Positions 18,295-60,298 of a stretch of 64,000 nucleotides of DNA are shown here, piece after piece; positions within the stretch are counted from its first letter, which is position 1; each line of letters opens with the position of its first letter. The stretch is from Vitreimonas sp. (GTDB taxonomy: Bacteria > Patescibacteriota > Microgenomatia > UBA1400 > PJMF01). Both the position numbers and the translations under genes were made by a program. The stretch lies in assembly GCA_035627515.1 (NCBI GenBank), contig DASPLQ010000012.1, positions 1,344,517 through 1,408,516 of the forward strand. The letters run 5' to 3'. The notes beneath the pieces were generated by a model. It did not search any database and had not been told where the DNA came from. It saw only the letters and a list, made by a program, of their open reading frames with translations.

Positions 18295-18361
18295 AAACTC
18301 AAAATTGACATCAGCTTCTTTCAGTACTAGATTGCAGATACTACTTAAAAGAAAGGAAACT

Positions 18362-18841
18362 ATGTCCAAAGAACCTTTAAAGCAATATCGAACTTGGGAA
18401 GAAACACCAAAAGCTCAATGGGTAAAAAAGCAAGCACATAGATTAAATCTCTTAAGTCAAAGTTCTGAGCCACTAGGGTGGGACGATCAAGCTGATTTTG
18501 ATTTTATTAATTGGTATAAGTCAGAAGGCTTTAATTTAAGTGAAGATAAAATTCAAGCTAAGCGAGATGAGTTTCGTAGACGAGACTGTCCCTACAAAAA
18601 CTGGGAAGAAACTTCCCAAGCTATGATGGTCAAAGCAATTGAAAACAATGTTAATGTAACACTAATTAATAATCCAGGAAAAGAGCTGCATTGGCAGCTT
18701 GCGGCTCGTCAGGTTTGGATTGAGTGGTACAAATCAGTGGGTTATATTTACTCAAAACCCTTCGGCAATAATGATGACGTTTATGAAGAGGTAGAAATTA
18801 TTGAACGTAGGTTTAAACCTGAGGAAGAGGAAAGCGAATAG
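18362..18841 (+). CDS. Hypothetical protein
   Basis: ATG at 18362 with SD aaaggaa. Trp-rich repeats (WEETPKAQWVKK / WEETSQAMMVK). Confidence 0.45.
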   Translation: MSKEPLKQYRTWEETPKAQWVKKQAHRLNLLSQSSEPLGWDDQADFDFINWYKSEGFNLSEDKIQAKRDEFRRRDCPYKNWEETSQAMMVKAIENNVNVTLINNPGKELHWQLAARQVWIEWYKSVGYIYSKPFGNNDDVYEEVEIIERRFKPEEEESE

Positions 18842-48666: not shown

Positions 48667-50520
48667 ATGAAAATTTGGCTGCGGCTATTAGTGGCATTGG
48701 TGGTAGGGTGGGTCGGTCTGTTTTTCCAGCCAGCCTACGTTCTCGCTGATGAAAATTTTTACACCGCTCTGCATACTACCTATGAAGTTAATGCCTCCGG
48801 TCAAACCCAAGTCACGCATCGTTTCCGCATTACTAACAAAACTCCCAGCTTTTTTATCAAACAGTACGCGCTGACCATTGGCTCTAGTAGCCAGGTAGCT
48901 GAAATCATTGCTACCAGCGATGGCAAAAACATTCCCCTCACCATCGAGCGTGATAAAAATAGCACCAGCATCACATTAAACTTTCCGGACCAAGTGGTGG
49001 GGGAGGGCAAGATTCGTGAATTTTTTGTGACGTATGAAAATAATGACGCCAGCTTAGTCAGTGGCAAAGTTTTGGAAGTCCATGTCCCGCAACTTAGTCA
49101 AGAAAAACTCTACGATGAGTATCGAGTGGTGCTCATCACGCCTTTTGCCTTTGGGGAGCCGGTGCGTGTCAACCCAGCTGAGTATGAAATCACCACCCAG
49201 CCTGGGCAGATTGTTACAACTTTTCCTAATCTGACCCACCAAGCCATTTCAGCTTTGTATGGCCAGGAGCAAATTTTTCACGCCACGCTGCGCTACAACT
49301 TAGAAAATACGGGCAGCTTTCCGGGCCTAATGCAAGTAGCCTTACCACCCGACACACCTTTTCAACGGGTGTATTACCGGCATTTAGATCCCTTACCTCA
49401 GAGTTTTGAGCGCGACGTAGATGGAAACTGGATTGCCACCTATCGCTTGCCCCCTAACTCACAAACAACTGTCCATGCCCAGGTGGAAACATTACTAAGC
49501 TTGACGCCTTTTGCTGATGTTCCCGTTACCGCACCCACCGATACATTTATCAAAACTGATGAGTACTGGCCACTCTCCAGCCCCCGTATTACTGATCTTA
49601 GTCAAACGCTGGGAGATGTCTCGTCTATTTATCAATATGTGGTAAAAAATTTAACGTACATAAACTTAGAGCCCGGCCAAGTTCCTGAACGATTAGGCGC
49701 CACTGGGGCCTTAGACAATCCCACCCTCGCCACCTGTCAAGAATTCACTGATTTATTTGTGACACTAGCCCGTGCCAAGAATATTCCTGCGCGGCGATTA
49801 ACAGGCTATGCGTACACTCAAAATAATGAGTTGCGACCGCTGAGTTTAGTCGAAGATATTTTACATGCCTGGCCAGAATACTATGATTACCAGCGCCAAG
49901 CTTGGGTAGCCGTCGATCCTACCTGGGAAAATACTACTGGAGGCATTGATTACTTTAATCAATTTGATTTAAATCACATCGTCTTTGCTATCAATGGCCA
50001 CTCTAGTTCTTTGCCATATCCTGCTGGAGCTTACAAATTTACTGATCAAAATACAAAAGATGTGGAGGTAGCTTTTGGAGAAAGTTTTACCGATGTTCCC
50101 CTGCAATTCACCATTGAGCTCCAACCTCAAACTCTAGCCACTATTCCTGTGCCAGGCAGGTATAATCTAATTGTTCGTAATGACACTGGCCGAGCCTGGT
50201 ATGACCTTAATCTCCATACGCAAGCTGAGTTACAGCCAGTAGAGTTACAACCTAATGGCTTGACTTTACCAGCCGTTTTACCATATGAGCAAAAGGTGAT
50301 ACCCTTACAAGTGTTTAACTTGAGGTGGCGGTCTGAACCCACTATTATCACTAACACCCTAGCGCTCGCCGGCACCTCAGAAAATGTTTTAACGTTTACA
50401 CATCATGTCAACAGTGGCCCCTTCTACTTCCAACTCCCGTATCTCATTGGCTTGGGAGGCAGTGGTATCTTCTTTACCCTCCTCGCCGGGAGTGTATTGG
50501 TTTATCGACGGGCAAGATAA
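48667..50520 (+). CDS. Secreted/membrane-anchored transglutaminase-like protein
   Basis: Signal peptide. Intact Cys-His-Asp core (TCQEFTDLFVTLARAKNIPARRLTGY ... HAWPEYY ... VAVDPTWE). C-terminal TM. Confidence 0.7.
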   Translation: MKIWLRLLVALVVGWVGLFFQPAYVLADENFYTALHTTYEVNASGQTQVTHRFRITNKTPSFFIKQYALTIGSSSQVAEIIATSDGKNIPLTIERDKNSTSITLNFPDQVVGEGKIREFFVTYENNDASLVSGKVLEVHVPQLSQEKLYDEYRVVLITPFAFGEPVRVNPAEYEITTQPGQIVTTFPNLTHQAISALYGQEQIFHATLRYNLENTGSFPGLMQVALPPDTPFQRVYYRHLDPLPQSFERDVDGNWIATYRLPPNSQTTVHAQVETLLSLTPFADVPVTAPTDTFIKTDEYWPLSSPRITDLSQTLGDVSSIYQYVVKNLTYINLEPGQVPERLGATGALDNPTLATCQEFTDLFVTLARAKNIPARRLTGYAYTQNNELRPLSLVEDILHAWPEYYDYQRQAWVAVDPTWENTTGGIDYFNQFDLNHIVFAINGHSSSLPYPAGAYKFTDQNTKDVEVAFGESFTDVPLQFTIELQPQTLATIPVPGRYNLIVRNDTGRAWYDLNLHTQAELQPVELQPNGLTLPAVLPYEQKVIPLQVFNLRWRSEPTIITNTLALAGTSENVLTFTHHVNSGPFYFQLPYLIGLGGSGIFFTLLAGSVLVYRRAR

Positions 50521-51871
50521 TGTCCTCTATGTGGGTAAAGCCAAAAATTTAAAAAATCGGGTCACTTCTTATCGTCGCTTCACTCAACTCACTGATCGAA
50601 TTAAACGGATGGTATTTAGCGCCGTTCAACTTAAGTTTTCGGTACTAGAGAGTGAACTTGAAGCACTGCTGGTCGAAGCAGAGTTGATCCGCACTCACCA
50701 ACCTGAGTTCAATATTTTGCTCAAAGATGACAAAACGCCACTTTATATTGTGATCACTGACGAAATCTATCCCCGAGTCCTGACCGCTCGCAAAAAAGAG
50801 CTTGATAAAAAACTGATTACTGGCACTACTTTAGGACCTTTTCCTAGTGCTTATAAAGTTCGTGAAGTGTTACGGATCGCCCGTAAAATTTTTCCGTGGT
50901 GTAATCAAGCTGGCAACCTTGGTAAACCCAGTTCAGTTAAATCTCATCAACTGGAGAACATCACGCTGCGTAAAATTGAAAATCTGACCAAACCCTGCTT
51001 TTATTATCACCTCAATTTGTGCCCCGGAGCCTGTTTAGAAAAACTCACGCCTGCAGAATATCAAGAAACAATTAATCACTTAATAGAGTTTCTAAAAGGT
51101 AAGAAAAAAGAAGTCCTCAAACTGCTCGAGCGTGAGATGAGCTTTTACGCTGAAAATGAAGAGTATGAAAAAGCCGGAAATACTCGGGATAAAATTCAAT
51201 TAATTAAATCGGTAACACAAAAAACCTACAGCCTCAAACCAGAAACGGTTTTACCTCGCCTTAAAGTTGAGTTAGCTGAGGAATCAGTTATTTATTTACG
51301 ACGACTGTTATTGACGTACTTATCATTACCTAAAAAATATCCTCTGACTCGCATTGAGGGTTATGACGTCAGTAACACCCAGGGCACCAACGCCTCAGTA
51401 GCCATGGTGACGTTTGAAAATGGCCAACCAGCTCGTGATCAATATCGTTTATTCAACATCAAGAGTCTAGATACCCCAAACGATTATGCGATGCATCAAG
51501 AAGCCTTACTACGCCGGCAAAATCATCCCGAGTGGGGAAGGCCTGATTTAATTGTCATTGACGGGGGGAAAGGTCAGCTACGAGCAGCCCTTAAAGTCTG
51601 GCACTGGTCAAATCCAGTTATCAGCATTGCCAAGGACCCAGATCGCATTATTATTCCCTTGATTACACCACCCAAACCTAAAAAAATCACAGCAGAAAGA
51701 AGAGTGGTCAGTGATGATGAAATCCCACAGATAGGGAAGATAGAGTATCAAGTTATTAAACTACCTGAGACTCATCCAGCGTTAAAGTTAATTCAGCAAA
51801 TTCGAGATGAATCACATCGCTTTTCTAAAAAACAACACAGCAAACGCAGACTAAAAGACTTATTTACTTAA
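50405..51871 (+). CDS. uvrC: Excinuclease ABC subunit C (short form lacking the C-terminal HhH region); start uncertain
   Basis: GIY-YIG (GVYWFIDGQDNVLYVGKAKNLKNR). UvrBC-interaction region. IDGGKGQL endonuclease-domain motif. The ATG at 50405 overlaps the upstream gene by ~115 nt; internal GTG/TTG starts are possible. Confidence 0.7.
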   Translation: MSTVAPSTSNSRISLAWEAVVSSLPSSPGVYWFIDGQDNVLYVGKAKNLKNRVTSYRRFTQLTDRIKRMVFSAVQLKFSVLESELEALLVEAELIRTHQPEFNILLKDDKTPLYIVITDEIYPRVLTARKKELDKKLITGTTLGPFPSAYKVREVLRIARKIFPWCNQAGNLGKPSSVKSHQLENITLRKIENLTKPCFYYHLNLCPGACLEKLTPAEYQETINHLIEFLKGKKKEVLKLLEREMSFYAENEEYEKAGNTRDKIQLIKSVTQKTYSLKPETVLPRLKVELAEESVIYLRRLLLTYLSLPKKYPLTRIEGYDVSNTQGTNASVAMVTFENGQPARDQYRLFNIKSLDTPNDYAMHQEALLRRQNHPEWGRPDLIVIDGGKGQLRAALKVWHWSNPVISIAKDPDRIIIPLITPPKPKKITAERRVVSDDEIPQIGKIEYQVIKLPETHPALKLIQQIRDESHRFSKKQHSKRRLKDLFT

Positions 51872-51882
51872 TTACCTAACTC

Positions 51883-52245
51883 ATGAACCTACTCAAACCC
51901 TTTTTAACGATGGCCGTCTCGATCATGATTTTGGCCTGGCTATTACCCACGATTAGTTATTTCGACTGGATTACGCTAATTTTAGCCAGCATTGTTTTGA
52001 CGCTACTCCAAAATGTGGTCAGACCTATATTAAGCTTGCTGTTTTTGCCCATTAATATTGTCACTCTCGGTTTCTTTTCCTTAGTCCTCAATGTAAGCAT
52101 GATTTGGCTGGCTACTTACTTAGTGCCTGGCTTTCGTGTGGAACCAATGATCGTCTTTGGTGTTGAGTTAAATTACTTTTTTTCGTTATTGTTGACTTCG
52201 TTCTTGCTGGGCCTAACTCAATCCTTGGTAGGTTTTATTATCTAA
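51883..52245 (+). CDS. DUF360/YvlD-family small membrane protein (phage-holin-4 superfamily)
   Basis: Four TM helices. NVVRPILSLLFLPINIVTLGFFSLVLN motif. Confidence 0.55.
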   Translation: MNLLKPFLTMAVSIMILAWLLPTISYFDWITLILASIVLTLLQNVVRPILSLLFLPINIVTLGFFSLVLNVSMIWLATYLVPGFRVEPMIVFGVELNYFFSLLLTSFLLGLTQSLVGFII

Positions 52246-52264
52246 AAGGAGTATAATTTCCCCC

Positions 52265-53251
52265 ATGCATAGGCTTACTTATCTTTTTATTCTGTTTGGT
52301 GTGATGATCGGGCTGTGCCTCTTAGTTGGGACACCAGCACAAGCCCAAGTCGGTGAGCGCCAAATTCTCAAAGCTTCACCCTCATCGCAAACTGTCGAAG
52401 TTATCACTTCACCCAGCAGTGAACCTGAGGGAATTGTGCCGATTGCTTCCCAAGAAGCCATGATTGCCACCCCTGCCGCTGAGTTGATTAATCGCCTGCA
52501 AGAAGAGCGTCGCAATCAAGATATTACCGAATCAACTGGTGAGCGTAAAAGTAGCCTCGCTGCCTACTTAGAATCACATCCAATTAGCCCGCTCAGCTGG
52601 CACAATTTTTTGCAACATAGTATCCGTCGCTCTATCAATAACGGTTTGCCAGCCAACGTCTTAGTTTTAATTTTATTGTTTCCGGTCATTACCTCGTTAA
52701 TTGCGGTTTCACGCCACGTGATTGGCCTAAAAGGTTTTGGTATTTACACACCGGCAGTCTTAGCGGTGGCTTTTGTCTCGACGGGAATCTTAACTGGTAT
52801 CGTTCTCTTTGGTGTAATCCTAATAGCAGTGGTCATTTTCCGCCCCTTAGTAAAGCGCCTGGAGCTTCAGTACTTACCGCGGACTGCCTTGTTACTGTGG
52901 GGAGTGTCACTCTTCACCTTACTCTTTTTAGTGGCATCCTCCTTACTGCAAACTCAATTATTTTTAGGCATTAGTATTTTCCCATTGTTGATCATGATGT
53001 TGCTGACCGAAAATTTTATGGAAACGCAGTTGACATCTTCTCAATCTCAAGCTTTCCAGCTGACAGCAGAAACGTTGCTGATTGCCACTATCTGTTCATT
53101 ACTGGTCGGCTCAGAAATGGTCCAGCAATGGGTGATCTTAAATCCCGAAATTACCATCATTGCCGTGGCAGTCTTTAATATTATCGTCGGCCACTATACC
53201 GGCCTGCGTTTAATGGAGTACATCCGGTTTAGACCGTTATTAAATGAGTAA
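52265..53251 (+). CDS. Signal peptide + ~110-aa extracytoplasmic region + ~7 TM helices (7TM module of the RimK-associated system)
   Basis: Hydropathy pattern. Position immediately upstream of the RimK-like ligase. Confidence 0.5.
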   Translation: MHRLTYLFILFGVMIGLCLLVGTPAQAQVGERQILKASPSSQTVEVITSPSSEPEGIVPIASQEAMIATPAAELINRLQEERRNQDITESTGERKSSLAAYLESHPISPLSWHNFLQHSIRRSINNGLPANVLVLILLFPVITSLIAVSRHVIGLKGFGIYTPAVLAVAFVSTGILTGIVLFGVILIAVVIFRPLVKRLELQYLPRTALLLWGVSLFTLLFLVASSLLQTQLFLGISIFPLLIMMLLTENFMETQLTSSQSQAFQLTAETLLIATICSLLVGSEMVQQWVILNPEITIIAVAVFNIIVGHYTGLRLMEYIRFRPLLNE

Positions 53252-53256
53252 CGCCT

Positions 53257-54540
53257 ATGGTGAAACCACGCGACATCCTCGGCATGAACGCGCGCGAGCG
53301 CATTTACGGGAAACTTAACCCCGCCAGTTCGCGAGCCTTTTGTAGTTCTAAGTACGCCACCAAGGTTCTGCTCGAAAACAAGGGCATTCCCACCGCTACT
53401 ATTTATGGTGTCTTAACCAACAGTGAAGACGTCAATGAGTTTGATTGGGTATCGTTAGAAAAAAACTTTGTTATCAAACCCACCAATGGCAATGCTGGCA
53501 AAGGGGTGGCCATTTTTCGCAAGCAACACGTCGATAAATATCACTGGACTGATGCGATTGGTAAGACCTGGGATCTAGATGACATTAAACTCCATTGTTT
53601 TGATATTTTGGATGGCTTGTATAGTACGTATGGCGCTCAACATCACATCATCGTGGAAGAGCGCGTGCCGATTCATCCTACGTTACTGAAATACGTCTAT
53701 AAAGGTACCCCAGACATCCGCGTAATTGTTTTTAATCACGTCCCGGTAATGTGTATGTTACGGTTACCGACTGTGGAATCAGAGGGCCGGGCTAACTTGC
53801 ATCAAGGTGCCATCGCAGCTGGCATTGACATTGCCACAGGCGTCACCACCTACGCGATTACGGGCAGCGGCCAATCTATTTCGATCTTGCCCGATACCAA
53901 ACGCAAATTAAATGGCATTAAAATTCCCAACTGGAAGAAATTACTAGAAGTGGCGGTCCAAGCCTCAGATGCCGCTGGTTTAGTGTATGGTGGAGTGGAC
54001 TTGTTTGTTCATGAAGAGAAGGGCCCCTTAGTAGTTGAACTAAATGCCAACCCAGGTCTCTCCATTCAAAATGCCAATAAAGCTGGTTTGCGCCGTCGCC
54101 TCGAGCGAGTTCAGGATATTGAAGTGCTCAATCCTGAACATGGCGTGCGTATCGCTCAAGCACTATTTGCCAGCGTCCTAGCAGACAAAATTAAAGCCGA
54201 AGATGGCCTGATTATCGTGCCTTACCGCGATAACGTCACGGTTTATGGTGATAATAAACAAAAAATTGAAGTCGAAGCCTTGATGAATACTGGCCGTTTC
54301 CGCAGTGCTATTGCTAGTAACCTCGCCAGTCAGTTAGGCCTCATTGATTTAGAAGATTTATTATGGTTCCAGCAAGAAACAGATGAAGGCAGAGCCCCTG
54401 TGGTGGAGGTAAACTTAAAAATTAAGAATCGCAAACTTAAAACCGCGATGGTGGTCAGCAAACGTTTAAATAAATCAGCCCATAAACTTGAAATTGGTCG
54501 TCATGACTTGGATGGCTTCTTAGTTGGTGAAAACGAATGA
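53257..54540 (+). CDS. Alpha-L-glutamate-ligase-like (RimK-related) ATP-grasp enzyme fused to a C-terminal retropepsin-like (RimB/PF05618-type) peptidase domain
   Basis: N-terminal ILGMNARERIY...KYATKVLLENKGIPT signature of RimK-related ligases. ATP-grasp core. C-terminal ~130 aa (DGLIIVPY...ALMNTGRFRSAIASNLASQLGL...) resembles the putative ATP-dependent zinc protease / retropepsin fold associated with RimK. Confidence 0.65.
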   Translation: MVKPRDILGMNARERIYGKLNPASSRAFCSSKYATKVLLENKGIPTATIYGVLTNSEDVNEFDWVSLEKNFVIKPTNGNAGKGVAIFRKQHVDKYHWTDAIGKTWDLDDIKLHCFDILDGLYSTYGAQHHIIVEERVPIHPTLLKYVYKGTPDIRVIVFNHVPVMCMLRLPTVESEGRANLHQGAIAAGIDIATGVTTYAITGSGQSISILPDTKRKLNGIKIPNWKKLLEVAVQASDAAGLVYGGVDLFVHEEKGPLVVELNANPGLSIQNANKAGLRRRLERVQDIEVLNPEHGVRIAQALFASVLADKIKAEDGLIIVPYRDNVTVYGDNKQKIEVEALMNTGRFRSAIASNLASQLGLIDLEDLLWFQQETDEGRAPVVEVNLKIKNRKLKTAMVVSKRLNKSAHKLEIGRHDLDGFLVGENE

Positions 54541-55484
54541 GCAATATTATTAGCGACGTCAATCCAGTTAACTTACTGAGCGAAAAACAAAAGTTTTTTG
54601 CTGATACTAGTTATAACCCTCAGTTTGAGTATAAACGAGCCATCAATCCTGATCAGCTCATCCAATGGGGCTTACCTCTGCCCGCGTACGTGAAGCACGC
54701 CCAGCAGATGCTGTTAAAACATCCCAATAAAATTCCTGCTCACAGTGATACTGTCACCGAAGCCGAAATTCTCACCGCCGTGAGTGACTTTAATGCTGCC
54801 CATCGCCTGGAACATCCCTTAGAAGTAGTCTTCTCGGCTAGCTCAGCGTCGCGCTGCCAAGTCACTACCAAAAAAATTACTTTTCAGTTACCTATTACGT
54901 ATAGCCGAACCCATTTTAAAGATCTTTGCCGACATGAACTAGAAACACATATCTTACGCCGCCTTAATCATGCTCAACAGCCGTGGGGGCCACAAGATTT
55001 TCCCGATCCTGAATTTCGGAAAACTGAAGAAGGTTTAGCAGGTCTGCATACCTTTTTGTTTCGCACCGATAAAATTATTACCCGCAGTTACCTGACTTAC
55101 ACTGCCGTCGCACTAGCCCAGAAACTTTCCTTTAGTGAAGTGTTTCATCAGTTATTACCGTACGGCATTTCACGGCAGCAGGCTTGGCGGCTAGCGGTCA
55201 GAACCAAGCGGGGATTGAGTGATACAGCCCAGGCCGGTGGCCTCAGCAAAGATATTTGTTATTTCGAAGGTATGGTAGAGGTGTGGCAGTGGTTGAAAAA
55301 CCAGGAACATGATCCTAAGGATTTGTATTTGGGTCGCCTAGGCCTTGATCAGATTGAGGCCATGAAACCCCAAGCAGTTACTACCGGTTTACGCTATCCA
55401 TCCTTCTTCGCCGATTTAGAGCAGTACCGGCACTTGATTAATGAAATTGGGGCTGTTAATAACTTTGAAAATCTTATTCAATAA
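54537..55484 (+). CDS. DUF1704 / QEGLA-motif protein (MATCAP-like putative metallocarboxypeptidase)
   Basis: TEEGLAGLHTF (QEGLA-like motif). HELETH His/Glu cluster. Confidence 0.55.
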   Translation: MSNIISDVNPVNLLSEKQKFFADTSYNPQFEYKRAINPDQLIQWGLPLPAYVKHAQQMLLKHPNKIPAHSDTVTEAEILTAVSDFNAAHRLEHPLEVVFSASSASRCQVTTKKITFQLPITYSRTHFKDLCRHELETHILRRLNHAQQPWGPQDFPDPEFRKTEEGLAGLHTFLFRTDKIITRSYLTYTAVALAQKLSFSEVFHQLLPYGISRQQAWRLAVRTKRGLSDTAQAGGLSKDICYFEGMVEVWQWLKNQEHDPKDLYLGRLGLDQIEAMKPQAVTTGLRYPSFFADLEQYRHLINEIGAVNNFENLIQ

Positions 55485-55489
55485 GCATT

Positions 55490-56455
55490 ATGCCACGCCT
55501 CAACGCCAGCTCCCGCATCATGTATGAAACTGCTCAAGAATTAGGAATTGAGTGTGTAGTATTTGATGACAAAGAAACCATTCTGATGAGTAAAGGTTCC
55601 GCTCAATGGTATACCCGCGGTTCGCGAACTTCCTTACAATCATCAGTGGGTAAGAGTATCGCCGATAATAAATCACTGACTAAAAAAGTGTTAGCTCATT
55701 TTCAAATTCCCACTGCCCGGTTCTGCGTACTTAAAACAACCACTGATTTAGACCAGCTCGACAGTTTGCAGTTTCCTATCGTGATGAAACCCACCAATGA
55801 ACGCCACGGCAAAGGGGTACTAGTGGGTATTCAAAGTAAAGCCCAGGCAGCCGAAATTTGGGCTAATCAAACCTACGATGCTATTCTTTGTGAAGAAATG
55901 TTAAAAGGCACTGAGTATCGAATTGTGTGTGTGGATTATAAATTTGTAGCGGCAGCGTTTCGTAAACCTGCCCATGTTACTGGTGATGGGGTACACACAG
56001 TTACTGACCTAATTGCCGAAAAGAATCGGCATCCTTGGCGAGGTGATGGTCATGAAAATAACTTAAGCTTAATTAAGGTTGATGACGCCGTAGAAAAATA
56101 CCTGTCAGAACAGGGCTTTAATCTCGAAAGTATTCCGGCTCCGGAGCAAGTAGTGAATCTGCGCAAAACAGCTAATTTATCAACTGGGGGAGAAGCCTGG
56201 GATGTCACTGATACCGTTTCTGTAGAGAACCAGCAACTATTTGAAAAAATCGCCCGGGCTTGTGATTTAAATACCGTGGGCATTGATATTATGTGTGATT
56301 CATTGACGACTCCAATTATTACTCAGGACCATGCGGGCGTAATCGAAGTCAATGCTTCACCCGGGTTGCGAATGCATCATTATCCTATTCAAGGCGAACC
56401 TCGGTTAGTGGCTCATAAGATACTGACCATGGTTATGGATCACTTTTTAACCTAA
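55490..56455 (+). CDS. Second ATP-grasp ligase (cyanophycin-synthetase N-domain / RimK-GshB-like)
   Basis: ATP-grasp blocks. VIEVNASPGLRMHHYP resembles the CphA N-terminal ligase domain. Confidence 0.55.
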   Translation: MPRLNASSRIMYETAQELGIECVVFDDKETILMSKGSAQWYTRGSRTSLQSSVGKSIADNKSLTKKVLAHFQIPTARFCVLKTTTDLDQLDSLQFPIVMKPTNERHGKGVLVGIQSKAQAAEIWANQTYDAILCEEMLKGTEYRIVCVDYKFVAAAFRKPAHVTGDGVHTVTDLIAEKNRHPWRGDGHENNLSLIKVDDAVEKYLSEQGFNLESIPAPEQVVNLRKTANLSTGGEAWDVTDTVSVENQQLFEKIARACDLNTVGIDIMCDSLTTPIITQDHAGVIEVNASPGLRMHHYPIQGEPRLVAHKILTMVMDHFLT

Positions 56456-56460
56456 ATACT

Positions 56461-57219
56461 ATGACTTTTGATCTAAAACCTCACCACATCCAACGCCCTG
56501 AAAAAATAACTTGGCGTTTTCCGTATAAAGGTGGGGACATCTTAAGTTATTTAAAAAGTAAAACTTCACGGTCTTTCTTAAGAAATGCTGATCAAGATTT
56601 GCTTGAGTTTGGAATTACTTACCAGGTTAAAGAAGTCGATGAAAATTTATTTAGCCAATGGTTAGAGTATTACTCATCCAAAATGAGTGAACAGGGTTAT
56701 GAGGTAATTGCTAATTGGGAGTGGTATCACAAGCGAAAAGACGAAGGATATACTATTTATCTTGGCCTTTTTACTCAAGGTGAGACTTGGGTGGGCAGCG
56801 AAATTTTTTCGCAAAAAGATCAACGGTTTATTGCTGCCTTCAAAGCTAGTGAACGTTTAGAAAAATTTTCCAAAAAACGCAACTCAATTGGCGCAGTGAT
56901 TGATTATTTCTTCATTAAATATGCCGTTGAGCACCAAGCGGAACTTATTTCTTTTGGACAATCACGCAATGCTTTTGGTGTTATTAACACTTCAGGAAAT
57001 TTAGATTACAAATTGCGTTTTGGCTTTCAACCCCAACCTTCGAAAGACACAGTTTTATTAACTGAAGTGCCAATTGGAGAGGATGGAACGGTAATGTTTT
57101 TCGGCCTCCAAGATGGATGCCTAAAATTATTTGGTGTTAAACCTATCGGCTCAGAGCATCTTTTTGAACAGGCCCGCTTTGCAAGTGATGAGCTCCCTTT
57201 TGTCGAATTGACATACTAA
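56461..57219 (+). CDS. GNAT-fold (FemAB/Acetyltransf_6-like) protein, putative acyl/aminoacyl transferase
   Basis: 252 aa. NSIGAVIDYFFIKYAVEHQAELISFG resembles the GNAT motif-A region. Weak. Confidence 0.4.
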   Translation: MTFDLKPHHIQRPEKITWRFPYKGGDILSYLKSKTSRSFLRNADQDLLEFGITYQVKEVDENLFSQWLEYYSSKMSEQGYEVIANWEWYHKRKDEGYTIYLGLFTQGETWVGSEIFSQKDQRFIAAFKASERLEKFSKKRNSIGAVIDYFFIKYAVEHQAELISFGQSRNAFGVINTSGNLDYKLRFGFQPQPSKDTVLLTEVPIGEDGTVMFFGLQDGCLKLFGVKPIGSEHLFEQARFASDELPFVELTY

Positions 57220-57258: not shown

Positions 57259-58371
57259 ATGGTTCATAATGATTTGCCCACTACCGCTAAACCAAAGGTC
57301 GCCCTCGGCATGTCAGGCGGTGTCGATTCATCCGTCTGCGCTCATTTACTAATTGAAGCTGGTTATGAAGTCACTGGCATTTTTTTGGAGTGCTGGCGCG
57401 CTCCCGGCTGCCGAAGTGAAGAGGATCGTAAAGATGCCCTCAAAATTGCCCTCGATCTCAATATCCCTTTTCAAGTTCTAGATTTTAAACAAGCATATAA
57501 AGATAAAGTAGTGGAGTACTTCTTTGATGAGTATCACCAAGGTAGAACTCCCAACCCAGATGTGATGTGTAATAAAGAAATTAAGTTCGGCTTATTCTAT
57601 GACTGGGCTATGGCCCAAGGGTATGACTATGTCGCAACTGGTCATTATGCTGATTTAGGCCGAACAGAACAGGGTGAAATTTTTCTGCAAACTCCCACCG
57701 ATGAACACAAAGACCAAACCTATTTTTTGTATCGCCTCACGGCTGATCACCTTCGACACGTGTTGTTTCCCCTGGGAAATCTCACTAAACCACAAGTACG
57801 AGCTGAAGCTGAGCGACGTGGCCTACACGTCGCTACTAAGAAAGACTCTGTAGGGATTTGTTTTATCGGAGACATTAATGTCCATAATTTCTTAGAAGAA
57901 AGATTGGGTAAAAATCCAGGCCAAGTGGTGGATGTACATGGAACTGTCATTGGAGACCATCAAGGTTTGTGGTTTTACACCGTGGGACAACGCCACGGTT
58001 TTACCGTCAACACTACCACTTTAGTTAAACAAAGTGATGGCAGTACTATCAATAAACATAACATTCCACCTTTTTACGTCATCAAAAAAGTACCCGGGAA
58101 AAATCAGTTAGTGGTGGGATTTGGACCAGAGACGTATTTCCAAGAGTTTACTATTCAGGACCCACACTGGATCTCCCAGCCGCCACACGAATCAAAGTTA
58201 TTGGTAAGAATTCGTCATACTGGAAAGTTGTTGCCGGCTACGTTGAAAGACAACCACGTCCACTTAGACGCACCCGTCCAAGGTTTAGCTGAAGGCCAAT
58301 CAGCAGTTTTTTACACTTCATTACCTACTGGCGGCTACCGCTGTTGGGGTGGGGGAATTATCAGTTGTTAA
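57259..58371 (+). CDS. mnmA: tRNA-specific 2-thiouridylase
   Basis: PP-loop ALGMSGGVDSSV. Catalytic Cys residues. 370 aa. Confidence 0.85.
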   Translation: MVHNDLPTTAKPKVALGMSGGVDSSVCAHLLIEAGYEVTGIFLECWRAPGCRSEEDRKDALKIALDLNIPFQVLDFKQAYKDKVVEYFFDEYHQGRTPNPDVMCNKEIKFGLFYDWAMAQGYDYVATGHYADLGRTEQGEIFLQTPTDEHKDQTYFLYRLTADHLRHVLFPLGNLTKPQVRAEAERRGLHVATKKDSVGICFIGDINVHNFLEERLGKNPGQVVDVHGTVIGDHQGLWFYTVGQRHGFTVNTTTLVKQSDGSTINKHNIPPFYVIKKVPGKNQLVVGFGPETYFQEFTIQDPHWISQPPHESKLLVRIRHTGKLLPATLKDNHVHLDAPVQGLAEGQSAVFYTSLPTGGYRCWGGGIISC

Positions 58372-58423: not shown

Positions 58424-59608
58424 ATGAAGCACCTTCTTCTTATCCTCGGTATTATCACTCTCAGCCCACTGTCTCTTATTACTCCTACTGCTGCCCATGC
58501 CCAAACTAATACCTGTGCTGAACATCAACCAGTGGATACACAGTTCCGTTCCGGCACCGAGCACTGGGTGAACGGCTCACAAATTACTGCTCAAGGTTTA
58601 CGCCCCAACTCTAGTATTGATATCAATTGTTTTGCCAAGAATGGGTATGCCCACTTACCAAATGCCGTCATCGACGTCACTTTTCCTAACGGCTCCACTC
58701 AGCGCGTATCAAGTGCCCCACAATTACATGGCTACCAATTGACTCAAGTTGGCACCTATACCTTTCGTTGTTCCTCTACTACCATCAACGACTGTGGCAA
58801 CACCGATACCTTGACCGTGCAACCATTTTCAAGTTCGGCGCCAGCATCTTCACCCCAAGCTTCTCCCTCGCCTTCACCCAGTCCCTCAGCTTCGCCTACC
58901 ACCACTCACCGCAGTACGTGTGATGATTTAACCGTAGCTGGAGGCAACAATAGTTTGGTGCCCGCCAAAGTCACCCTGCGAGCCCGAGCCAGCGATAACA
59001 AGGGTAGTATCCAACGCTACAAGTTTTACTTTGGCGATGGCAAACAAGAAGAAAGTGATAATGCAGAAATTCAACACACCTACGAATCCTCAGGCAGCTT
59101 TGTGGCCCGTGTAGATGTTAAAGATAGCCAGGGCAACTGGCGTACCAGTTCCAGTTGTGAAGAAAATGTGACTGTCAAAGCTTCCAGTGTGGAGTCGCAC
59201 AAATCGGGTTGTTCTGATCTGTATATCACTGCTAACAATAATGCCCAAGCTCCCGCTACGTTAAGCTTCCGCGTCACCGGTCACGACAATAAAGGTGGCT
59301 TGCAGCGCTACAAACTTGATTTTGGCAACGGGGTAGTCAAAGAAAGCGATGGTCAAACGTTCGAGCAACACTTTGATAAAGCTGGCACCTATACAGCTCG
59401 AGCCTATGTCAAAGACAGTCACGGTAATTGGCATGGTGGAGAAGACAACTGTAAAAAAACGGTCTATTTATCCACGAAATCATTAACCCGCCAGCCCTCC
59501 ACCGGCACTCCGACACAGTTTTCATTGTTCGGCGGCATGAGTGGCGTGTTAGCTGTTGGCTTGGCTTACTGGAAAAAAGATACCTTGGCTGCGCTAGTGA
59601 AAGCCTAA
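58424..59608 (+). CDS. Secreted cell-surface protein with PKD-like repeats and a C-terminal sorting-signal-like segment
   Basis: Signal peptide. Repeated (Q)RYK(F/L)xFG(D/N)G modules. C-terminal QPSTG + hydrophobic helix + KKD. Confidence 0.55.
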   Translation: MKHLLLILGIITLSPLSLITPTAAHAQTNTCAEHQPVDTQFRSGTEHWVNGSQITAQGLRPNSSIDINCFAKNGYAHLPNAVIDVTFPNGSTQRVSSAPQLHGYQLTQVGTYTFRCSSTTINDCGNTDTLTVQPFSSSAPASSPQASPSPSPSPSASPTTTHRSTCDDLTVAGGNNSLVPAKVTLRARASDNKGSIQRYKFYFGDGKQEESDNAEIQHTYESSGSFVARVDVKDSQGNWRTSSSCEENVTVKASSVESHKSGCSDLYITANNNAQAPATLSFRVTGHDNKGGLQRYKLDFGNGVVKESDGQTFEQHFDKAGTYTARAYVKDSHGNWHGGEDNCKKTVYLSTKSLTRQPSTGTPTQFSLFGGMSGVLAVGLAYWKKDTLAALVKA

Positions 59609-59620
59609 ACTATATCTCAC

Positions 59621-60298
59621 ATGACCCACCCACATTTCGCCACTGTCCAGCGAAGTAAAGGCCCTGCCTGGTTGTGGCCCCTCATTATTGCCTGCTTAGT
59701 AATTGTGTTTCTCATCTGGCTATTTTTAACATATGTGCCGGTATTAATCGTAGAAACAAAATACCAGTCACGGCAATTACTCTCACAAGTTTTCAATGTC
59801 ACTGATATCCGCGAAATCTTTATTCCAAATTTTGAAGCCTTGGGCTTCCGCGGAGCATCAAAATATAAAGACTACGGCATTGTCATTCCAGCGATTTATT
59901 TAGATGAACCAGTGGTTTTTAATGTCGATCCCAATGACCAAACTGCCTACACCGCCGCGCTTAAACAAGGGATTGCCCACGCTTCTGGGACGGCTTTTCC
60001 CGACAATCCAGGCATCGGTTACTACTTCGCACACTCTTCTAATCCAGAATTTCGCCATCAATATAATGCAGTTTTTTATCTACTAGGCAAACTGAAACCT
60101 CAGGATGAAATTTTTATTTGGCATGAAAATGAGTATGTTCGTTATGTAGTCAGCACTACCAAAATCACCGAGCCTGAAGACGTCAGTTTTCTGAACCAAC
60201 CTGCGGATGCGGAAACGATTGTGCTCCAAACGTGCTGGCCGCCTGGAACCACGCAGAAACGATTACTCGTATTTGCTCAAAGAGAAAGAGGGGAGTAA
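59621..60298 (+). CDS. Sortase-family transpeptidase
   Basis: N-terminal TM anchor. VLQTCWPPG (TLXTC-type active-site Cys). Upstream His (FAHSS). C-terminal Arg. Confidence 0.65.
   Translation: MTHPHFATVQRSKGPAWLWPLIIACLVIVFLIWLFLTYVPVLIVETKYQSRQLLSQVFNVTDIREIFIPNFEALGFRGASKYKDYGIVIPAIYLDEPVVFNVDPNDQTAYTAALKQGIAHASGTAFPDNPGIGYYFAHSSNPEFRHQYNAVFYLLGKLKPQDEIFIWHENEYVRYVVSTTKITEPEDVSFLNQPADAETIVLQTCWPPGTTQKRLLVFAQRERGE

Follow-up and report, generated by a model that had tools for sequence, protein, structure and literature searches.

What does a cassette do that encodes, gene after gene, a polytopic membrane protein, two ATP-grasp ligases, peptidase-like domains of two unrelated families and a small Fem-like protein? 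The question is raised by six genes at positions 51883-57219 of a 64,000-nucleotide (nt) stretch of contig DASPLQ010000012.1 (assembly GCA_035627515.1), hereafter the window, which an earlier sequence-only reading had singled out as a candidate peptide-tagging system. Judged from profile matches and gene order, the core of the cassette is homologous to the rloABC genes of Pseudomonas aeruginosa and related to RimK/RimB. What is new is a ligase-retropepsin fusion, always preceded by a gene for a seven-transmembrane (7TM) protein, which we observe in many lineages of Patescibacteria. An apparent replacement of the retropepsin by a MATCAP-type peptidase, fusions of the ligase to MATCAP and a small family of Fem-fold proteins also appear to be new.

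The six open reading frames (ORFs) are co-directional in the ORF listing and as tightly packed as had been read: the spacers within the cassette measure 5-19 nt and the gene starting at 54537 shares 4 nt with the end of the ligase gene. The cassette is flanked by uvrC (50405-51871) upstream and mnmA (57259-58371) downstream. Promoter and terminator counts in the region did not exceed those of shuffled sequences and the whole stretch from uvrA through a sortase gene is co-directional, so that the limits of the operon cannot be read from the DNA. The cassette encodes the following, where aa stands for amino acids:

51883-52245, + strand: small polytopic membrane protein of 120 aa, a clade-specific accessory (PF04020, Phage_holin_4_2, formerly DUF360, E=2e-21)
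52265-53251, + strand: RloB-like 7TM protein of 328 aa (PF14402, 7TM_transglut, E=5e-29, residues 131-325)
53257-54126, + strand: RloC-type (RimK-related) ATP-grasp ligase domain, residues 1-290 of a 427-aa protein (TIGR02291, PF14397)
54208-54540, + strand: domain of the RloA/RimB type with a retropepsin fold, residues ~318-427 of that 427-aa protein (AlphaFold2 model, profiles)
54537-55484, + strand: MATCAP/QEGLA-family zinc metallopeptidase of 315 aa (PF08014, E=2e-22)
55490-56455, + strand: stand-alone ATP-grasp ligase of 321 aa, homologue of the CphA G domain (TIGR02068, E=8e-94)
56461-57219, + strand: protein of 252 aa with a predicted Fem/GNAT fold, putative aminoacyl-tRNA-dependent aminoacyl transferase

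By hydropathy, none of the four enzymes has a signal peptide or a transmembrane segment, which places them in the cytoplasm.

The 427-aa protein is encoded by one ORF (53257-54540) that contains both the ligase and the retropepsin-fold domain. Its N-terminal part was correctly recognized as a RimK-related, alpha-L-glutamate-ligase-like ATP-grasp enzyme: profile hidden Markov models (HMMs) place it in PF14397 (E=1e-63, 215 bits against a gathering score of 31) and in TIGR02291 (rimK_rel_E_lig, "alpha-L-glutamate ligase-like"; E=1e-76, residues 3-290, with 257 bits below the 314-bit equivalog cutoff), and the Mg/ATP motif E261-x-N263 is intact. The ligase is 41% identical to the RloC of Guyparkeria. 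It is not a RimK equivalog, scoring 67 bits against the 143-bit cutoff of TIGR00768 and 26 bits against the 331 of PRK10446 (RimK). The closest solved structures of the domain are RimK enzymes, with a weak match (E~3e-4).

The C-terminal domain could not be assigned by direct sequence searches: it has no direct match to PF05618, yields only sub-threshold matches to gag-asp_proteas and Asp_protease_2, retrieves nothing relevant in a profile search of the PDB sequences and aligns to HIV-1 protease (hhalign) over an 8-residue motif only, without significance. The AlphaFold2 (AF2) model, built with 24 homologues, has a retropepsin fold with a predicted local distance difference test (pLDDT) score of 84, and its best match in the PDB is RloA (9g58, E=1.8e-5), followed by the RVP domains of Ddi1, RloA2 (9g59) and Lpg0085 (2pma). 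More distant full-length relatives, aligned across the whole query, match PF05618 above cutoff, and an HMM iterated from the domain of the window recovers the stand-alone, signal-peptide-bearing RloA of Guyparkeria hydrothermalis (L081), which itself matches RloA structures at E~3e-23 (PDB 9g59). The model thus shows a retropepsin fold for the C-terminal domain, and the profile links confirm that it is homologous to PF05618. The proposed fusion of the ligase to a RimB-type domain is thus backed, both as a fusion and as a fold. An active protease is not, because Asn344 (N344, codon 54286-54288) in the motif L-M-N344-T-G-R aligns in the HMM alignment to the Asp of the K-[ILV]-D-T-G-A motif of relatives and RloA, so that the window protein has N-T-G instead of the catalytic D-T/S-G triad. 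Among 120 close homologues the residue at this position is N in 104, H in 10, D in 4 and S in 2, and the following Thr-Gly is invariant. RloA D48A and D48N served as catalytically dead controls (Lormand et al., mBio 2025, PMC12239564) and RimB D31E is inactive (PMC11957791); the Asp-to-Asn change of the window clade is the same as that of the engineered dead mutant RloA D48N. Since N344 occupies the position of an Asp that is essential in RloA and RimB, the domain is predicted to be a pseudo-protease devoid of aspartic-protease chemistry. What the locus adds is therefore not the fused protease of the sequence-only reading, and we propose instead a pseudo-protease next to a MATCAP-type peptidase. 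Conservation of the pseudo-protease domain equals that of the ligase domain, which argues that the former has retained a function. In one relative (L065, 2843-3334), a stand-alone retropepsin with the canonical K-I-D-T-G-A motif directly follows a fusion protein whose own motif is D-T-G-L.

How widespread is this arrangement? More than 120 clusters share the architecture of the 427-aa protein, at 64-74% identity; those that carry a name are Patescibacteria. Searching 1.84 billion representatives with the fusion protein gave 1686 matches, a sample of which was scanned with Pfam, and a profile search of species-representative genomes with an 8-sequence alignment gave 80 loci, from Microgenomates, Dojkabacteria, Saccharibacteria, Paceibacteria, Peregrinibacteria, Gracilibacteria and others. 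The loci were annotated with HMMs iterated from the proteins of the window and 86 of them were examined for gene order. The neighbourhood is conserved, as the 7TM gene lies immediately upstream of the ligase gene in 86/86 loci, and the invariant part is this 7TM and ligase(-retropepsin) pair rather than the trio of 7TM, ligase and QEGLA genes that had been put forward. MATCAP varies or is absent according to lineage: its gene is adjacent and downstream only in the clade of the window, is elsewhere fused (~800-aa forms), inverted or located upstream, and is absent from 48 loci. The number of accessory ATP-grasp genes per locus ranges from 0 to 4. The gene that precedes the 7TM-ligase pair is uvrC or the DUF360 gene in the clade of the window and rplL (ribosomal protein L7/L12; L037, L040, L046, L047, L054, L058 and L064) or ruvC (L039, L049-L051, L055, L056, L060, L062, L063, L066, L067 and L069) elsewhere, that is, at least three unrelated contexts. 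The pair thus moved as a unit between housekeeping contexts, as it is found directly after rplL or ruvC. We also considered whether the 7TM gene of distant lineages is preceded by a further, hidden component and rejected this, the recurrent ORFs there being rplL and ruvC.

The Pfam scan further revealed single polypeptides that combine the parts of the cassette: 7TM_transglut and ligase (P0231); Transglut_core, 7TM and ligase (P0266); ligase, PF05618 and MATCAP (P0156 and P0161); ligase, PF05618 and a second ATP-grasp domain (P0181, 926 aa); and ligase, PF05618 and YdjC, a carbohydrate deacetylase family (P0162, 688 aa). The latter hints at a sugar-linked acceptor. These fusions bear directly on whether the six genes form a system at all or are mere syntenic neighbours in a compact genome. 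Only in close relatives is the cassette found together with DUF360, the transglutaminase gene farther upstream, uvrC and mnmA; there, the flanking uvrA-transglutaminase-uvrC and mnmA-PKD-sortase blocks are just as syntenic, and the promoter and terminator scans are uninformative on this point. Mere neighbourhood nevertheless seems to us hardly tenable: the fusion proteins tie the 7TM, ligase, retropepsin, MATCAP and second ATP-grasp parts into one functional unit, as had been supposed, and largely refute it for the core; the 7TM-ligase pair persists in unrelated contexts; and the Fem-like family occurs, among the loci checked, in this cassette only. It remains viable for DUF360 and, especially, for the upstream transglutaminase. 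Between close relatives, the fusion protein is 64-69% identical, against 52-64% for MnmA and 53-60% for UvrC.

The third gene product to be explained is the peptidase. The eukaryotic MATCAP/TMCP enzymes are metallocarboxypeptidases with an HExxxH motif that cleave off C-terminal Tyr and Glu and trim polyglutamate chains (PMC10499314). The 315-aa protein had been read as a DUF1704/QEGLA protein with the motifs TEEGLAG and HELETH, rightly so: it matches PF08014 with 80.5 bits (gathering score 27) and TIGR02421 (QEGLA) at E=3e-23, although its 83 bits do not reach the 339-bit equivalog cutoff of the latter, and both motifs are present (H133-E-L-E-T-H138 and T163-E-E-G-L-A168). It aligns end to end with human MATCAP (PDB 7z5g, E=1.7e-33), where RHELETH corresponds to RHEIGTH and TEEGLAGLH to TEEGLASLH. 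The H-E-x-x-x-H and E-G-L-A residues do not vary among the homologues: 76-77 of 80 have them and the remainder are gaps. Among the Patescibacteria, both E-EGLA (49 of 80) and Q-EGLA (26 of 80) occur. The full-length match to human MATCAP, set against the low score with the proteobacterial QEGLA model, may bear on the origin of the eukaryotic enzyme.

The position of the MATCAP gene correlates with the state of the retropepsin. Where MATCAP is absent from the locus, the D-[TS]-G motif of the retropepsin is intact in 47/48 loci, and where it is present without being adjacent, in 11/11. Where MATCAP is adjacent and co-directional, the motif is degenerate in 14/14 loci (12 of them N-T-G), and where it is fused, in 9/11. 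Among representatives at 50% identity, 4 MATCAP-fused proteins have an intact and 33 a degenerate motif, against 38 and 14 of the unfused ones (Fisher p=3e-9, a test that ignores phylogeny); at least 7 of the 14 degenerate unfused representatives carry the [NKA]-T-G-R of the window clade. One protein (P0161), in which Pfam detects a MATCAP domain that the window-derived HMM missed, would add one intact fused case. The fused clades show many different degenerate retropepsin motifs. On the simplest reading, hydrolysis passed to a tightly coupled MATCAP-type enzyme and the retropepsin domain was kept for a non-catalytic role.

Which known systems does the cassette resemble? The sequence-only reading took its core to be known from comparative genomics only, which is outdated: rloABC was characterized genetically and partly biochemically in 2025 and consists of the secreted retropepsin RloA, the inactive-transglutaminase-7TM protein RloB and the ATP-grasp protein RloC (PMC12239564). 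RloA cleaves runs of at least 8 Glu; losing the three RloA paralogues is lethal in low-osmolarity medium and deletion of rloB or rloC suppresses this lethality; rlo mutants of Pseudomonas have cell-shape, ampicillin and hypo-osmotic phenotypes; and the rlo operon of V. cholerae is controlled by the cell-wall stress system VxrAB (PMC12239564). As in RloABC, the TIGR02291/PF14397 ATP-grasp gene of the window directly follows a 7TM_transglut gene, and a retropepsin domain of the RloA/RimB (PF05618) lineage is part of the same unit; a canonical rloA-rloB-rloC operon in Guyparkeria (L081) was retrieved with the same profiles. Unlike in RloABC, where RloA is separate and secreted, the retropepsin domain of the window is fused to the C-terminus of a cytoplasmic ligase, lacks a signal peptide and has Asn for Asp; the 7TM protein does without the ectodomain that in RloB is an inactive transglutaminase; four proteins come in addition, namely a DUF360 protein, a CphA-like ligase, a Fem-like transferase and a MATCAP-type metallopeptidase; and the host is a Patescibacterium, whereas RloB is to 96% proteobacterial (PMC12239564). 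In Photobacterium damselae (A0J47_RS17005-RS17025), low salinity induces a QEGLA gene and the neighbouring ATP-grasp gene "GshB" 27-38-fold (PMC10308900), an observation that echoes the hypo-osmotic phenotype of Pseudomonas rlo.

The second point of comparison is RimK/RimB. RimB is a cytoplasmic polyglutamate (polyGlu) endopeptidase that stimulates the ATPase of RimK and its synthesis of poly-alpha-Glu by a direct, non-proteolytic interaction (PMC11957791), and a RimB-RimK hybrid enzyme (RimBK) acting on S6-polyGlu was described in 2025 (Little et al., JBC 2025, PMC11957791). Here too, an ATP-grasp relative of the alpha-L-glutamate ligases is joined to a retropepsin-like domain in the cytoplasm. 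The differences are that the ligase is N-terminal in the window protein while RimB is N-terminal in RimBK, that the hybrid is proteolytically active whereas the window fusion lacks the catalytic Asp, that the ligase belongs to the RloC branch and that the cassette has a membrane partner. The cassette could then serve cytoplasmic protein tagging as RimK/RimB does, the ligase polyglutamylating a protein C-terminus (e.g. that of ribosomal S6), MATCAP removing the tail and the 7TM protein regulating or localizing the enzymes. The RimK enzymes being the closest solved relatives of the ligase domain, the hybrids that act on S6-polyGlu, the cytoplasmic location of all the enzymes here and the action of MATCAP-family enzymes on protein C-termini are all in keeping with this. 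We find it unlikely, however: the ligase falls in the RloC branch (TIGR02291) and not in RimK proper; an invariant, sometimes fused membrane partner has no Rim counterpart; rimB and rlo show no genetic interaction in Pseudomonas (PMC12239564); the vicinity of the cassette holds no acidic-tailed candidate, the only one in the window lying 33 kb away and unannotated; and homopolymeric Glu tailing needs neither extra ligases nor a Fem-like enzyme. The gene of S6 itself, rpsF, lies outside the window.

The third comparison is with the tubulin-tail cycle of eukaryotes. The 315-aa protein is a full-length homologue of MATCAP/TMCP1-2 with identical HExxxH and EEGLA metal/catalytic motifs and, as with MATCAP and TTL/TTLL, the peptidase is encoded together with (and elsewhere fused to) ATP-grasp ligases, which would make a writer/eraser pair for acidic C-terminal peptides. 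Unlike in the eukaryotic cycle, there is no tubulin, the ligases are of the RloC and CphA types rather than TTL, and a membrane protein is coupled to them.

The membrane partner itself is RloB-like. The prediction of a signal peptide and 7TM protein is borne out by hydropathy, which shows a signal/anchor sequence and 7 hydrophobic segments, and by PF14402 (102 bits against a gathering score of 25). The signal/anchor is followed by a low-complexity extracytoplasmic segment of ~100 aa, and the cytoplasmic tail, which is conserved (...RLMEYIRFRPLLNE), includes the motif R-F-[RK]. The NCBIfam RloB model matches with its C-terminal part only (profile positions 314-507 of 508, E=8e-20): the N-terminal 130 aa have no match and the inactive-transglutaminase ectodomain of RloB is absent from the 328-aa protein, whereas 7TM proteins of ~500-540 aa in other Patescibacteria do carry an RloB-like transglutaminase domain. 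The DUF360 assignment of the 120-aa protein also stands (PF04020). Its gene stays directly upstream of the 7TM gene in L003, L087 and L088 despite unrelated insertions after uvrC; it is absent from the cassettes of distant lineages. The C-terminus of the 7TM protein was considered as an acceptor and rejected: its last residues (K 27, E 25, others) are neither conserved nor acidic, and some relatives have this terminus fused to the ligase.

What do the two remaining enzymes contribute? The 321-aa ligase had been called cyanophycin-synthetase-like, which is correct, and its match had been located in the N domain, which is not: it covers residues 157-471 of cyanophycin synthetase (TIGR02068) and aligns to the whole G (ATP-grasp) domain, which in CphA1 extends the C-terminus of a peptide with Asp (CphA1 structures 7lgm/7lg5, E~5e-54). 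It is a G domain only (CphA residues ~157-476), in contrast to the N + G + M architecture of CphA, and it is not a cyanophycin synthetase because it scores 315 bits against the 850-bit cutoff and lacks the N domain and the Mur-ligase-like M domain. Orthologues in L001 and L005 are 61-65% identical. This enzyme, closest to the CphA G domain, invites the idea of a cyanophycin-like or other storage or osmolyte poly-amino-acid synthase encoded with its own depolymerase; RimK-type enzymes also make free poly-alpha-Glu, and the low-salinity induction of the QEGLA and "GshB" genes in Photobacterium would suit an osmolyte. The missing N and M domains, the lack of the CphA-like gene in many loci that retain the core and a 7TM partner for which a storage polymer has no need make this idea quite improbable.

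The 252-aa protein is more unusual. No Pfam or NCBIfam family matches it even at E<=10, including PF02388, PF13480, PF03588 and PF09924, and among 5.8 billion clusters it has only 23 homologues, none with a Pfam domain. Its AF2 model (pLDDT 95) matches in Foldseek, in first place, Sbb17/Sba18 (E=1e-7), which are peptide synthases dependent on aminoacyl-tRNA, then FemX (5e-6) and the MprF synthase domain and L/F-transferase (~1e-4), at probability 1.0 and TM-scores of ~0.5. The description of a GNAT-fold, FemAB-like protein therefore holds for the fold and fails for membership of a sequence family. The predicted fold is shared with these enzymes; unlike the Fem-type transferases, the protein has ~250 aa and no detectable sequence family. 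We regard it as a putative aminoacyl-tRNA-dependent transferase, on the basis of the model. The family lies inside the cassette in 5/5 loci checked, which ties it to the cassette system. Its place among the accessory ligases varies, and in one case, L007 (13323-14875), two Fem-like paralogues stand in tandem in addition to two accessory ligases.

These enzymes raise the possibility that the ligases and the Fem-like transferase decorate a cell-wall precursor that is linked to a lipid or a nucleotide, be it the stem or bridge of peptidoglycan or a surface polymer. The 7TM and DUF360 proteins would then handle the lipid-linked intermediate and MATCAP would trim it, with no polyGlu chain involved. 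This possibility deserves weight because peptidoglycan side chains are built by two known enzyme classes, namely ATP-grasp ligases and Fem transferases, and because the rlo phenotypes in cell shape, ampicillin and hypo-osmotic response, like the VxrAB control in V. cholerae, concern the envelope (PMC12239564). Moreover, ATP-grasp and Fem-like genes are interchangeable in the accessory-module position, the structural matches FemX and MprF act on lipid- or nucleotide-linked acceptors, a ligase-retropepsin-YdjC fusion exists (P0162), the Pfam name of the ligase family is "sugar-transfer associated" and close relatives share the synteny of sortase and PKD surface-protein genes. That synteny is confined to close relatives, however, the demonstrated specificity of both peptidase families is for Glu-rich peptides and C-termini rather than muropeptides, and many lineages have only the 7TM and ligase-retropepsin genes without accessory enzymes. 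The 86 loci contain no Mur, MraY, flippase or glycosyltransferase gene, which is weak evidence as only the cassette families were searched for. On balance, decoration of an envelope precursor seems rather unlikely to us, if worth keeping in view.

We tentatively favour the view that the cassette is a Patescibacterial derivative of the Rlo/Rim systems of ligase and trimming peptidase, acting at the cytoplasmic face of the membrane. The RloC-like domain would extend a carboxylate with amino acids, most likely L-glutamate, at the expense of ATP, and the resulting acidic alpha-peptide chain could be free or attached to an acceptor. The pseudo-retropepsin would no longer cut and might be kept as a chain-binding, dimerizing or ligase-activating module, much as RimB stimulates RimK, and the MATCAP-like carboxypeptidase would do the hydrolytic trimming in its place. 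Further residues may be added by the CphA-G-like ligase and by the Fem-like, presumably aminoacyl-tRNA-dependent transferase, which together would be the strain-variable part (0-4 accessory genes). Finally, the 7TM protein, with DUF360 in the clade of the window, may tether the ligase and either export the product or couple synthesis to the envelope. The general idea of the sequence-only reading, the ligation and removal of amino acids coupled to a membrane component by analogy with RimK/RimB and TTL/MATCAP, fits the evidence; its fused protease can hardly be the trimmer, given N344.

Several points weigh against this proposal. To our knowledge, no product, acceptor or amino-acid specificity has been reported for any RloC-type ligase, and we infer glutamate as the substrate only from the kinship of the ligase with RimK and from what the peptidases found with it are specific for. 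The ligase and MATCAP proteins of the window both fall under their NCBIfam equivalog cutoffs. Asn at the catalytic site strongly predicts, from sequence, the loss of aspartic-protease chemistry, while Asp is kept in 4 and His in 10 of the 120 clade members. Few independent lineages stand behind the correlation between MATCAP and degeneration: one N-T-G clade and a few fused clades, probably one or two. Pseudomonas RloA acts outside the cytoplasm, and the all-cytoplasmic topology seen here, in the candidate phyla radiation (CPR), may follow a different logic. The role of the 7TM protein, whether exporter, anchor or sensor, is pure inference. Lastly, the cassette gaps and the acidic-tailed ORFs of the window yielded no candidate substrate gene: the intergenic gaps of 5-39 nt leave no room for a small substrate ORF in the cassette, and none was found there.

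It is tempting to go further, although we hold this more elaborate scenario to be doubtful: MATCAP would have repeatedly displaced the catalysis of an ancestral retropepsin across the Patescibacteria, leaving behind a conserved pseudo-protease that binds the chain or acts as an activator; ligase and MATCAP, in some lineages fused, would form a prokaryotic counterpart, and possibly the source, of the TTL(L)/MATCAP tubulin-tail cycle; and in the clade of the window they would work with an unrecognized family of aminoacyl-tRNA-dependent transferases to build a heteropeptide at the membrane.

The variants described here, be they fused, split or catalytically dead, are natural experiments that constrain the mechanism, as are the 7TM-ligase fusions; they put the ligase next to that end of the 7TM protein which lies in the cytoplasm. 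The Patescibacterial variants point to two unrelated polyGlu-directed peptidase families substituting for each other. The bacterial MATCAP/QEGLA proteins gain a functional context as partners of ATP-grasp ligases, and the cassette makes the origin of the eukaryotic enzyme of tubulin detyrosination and deglutamylation testable. That the fusion protein is conserved like housekeeping genes in many minimal-genome lineages suggests an important, unrecognized envelope or proteome function in CPR bacteria. The 252-aa protein would represent a new family of tRNA-dependent transferases.

The surroundings of the cassette call for a few remarks. The gene at 48667-50520 encodes, as had been read, a secreted transglutaminase with apparently intact catalytic motifs (PF01841, E=5e-16; ATCQEF, HAWPEY and VDPTW for Cys, His and Asp), anchored at its C-terminus. 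It is syntenic with the cassette in close relatives, with uvrC in between, and is replaced in L005/L006 and absent from distant lineages. Its similarity to a genuine RloB ectodomain, which has lost Cys and His, reaches E=6e-4 pairwise and is not significant between profiles (E=0.12). Because uvrC intervenes, the profile comparison falls short of significance and the gene is replaced in L005/L006, we treat the transglutaminase as a neighbour whose membership of the system is not demonstrable. The longest uvrC ORF already begins within the transglutaminase gene, sharing with it the last 116 nt; since the UvrC proteins of relatives have 395-475 aa, its true start is probably farther downstream. 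The C-terminal HhH domain of the window UvrC was not detected in the Pfam scan. On the other side, mnmA is followed at 58424-60298 by genes for a PKD-domain surface protein and a sortase-like protein, syntenic in close relatives and probably unrelated envelope genes. The only acidic-tailed ORF of the window, 18305-18841 (178 aa, no family, ending in ...RRFKPEEEESE), lies 33 kb from the cassette and was rejected as an acceptor for this distance and for its lack of a family assignment.

A last observation concerns names. The exact proteins encoded at 53257-54540 and 56461-57219 are labelled "Vitreimonas sp.", an alphaproteobacterium, at NCBI, and many genomes with related loci (L008, L009, L014, L017, L020 and others) carry titles such as "uncultured Pseudomonadales", "uncultured Gammaproteobacteria" or "uncultured Bdellovibrionales" although their loci are of the Patescibacterial type; these labels are probably taxonomic errors of metagenome-assembled genomes.

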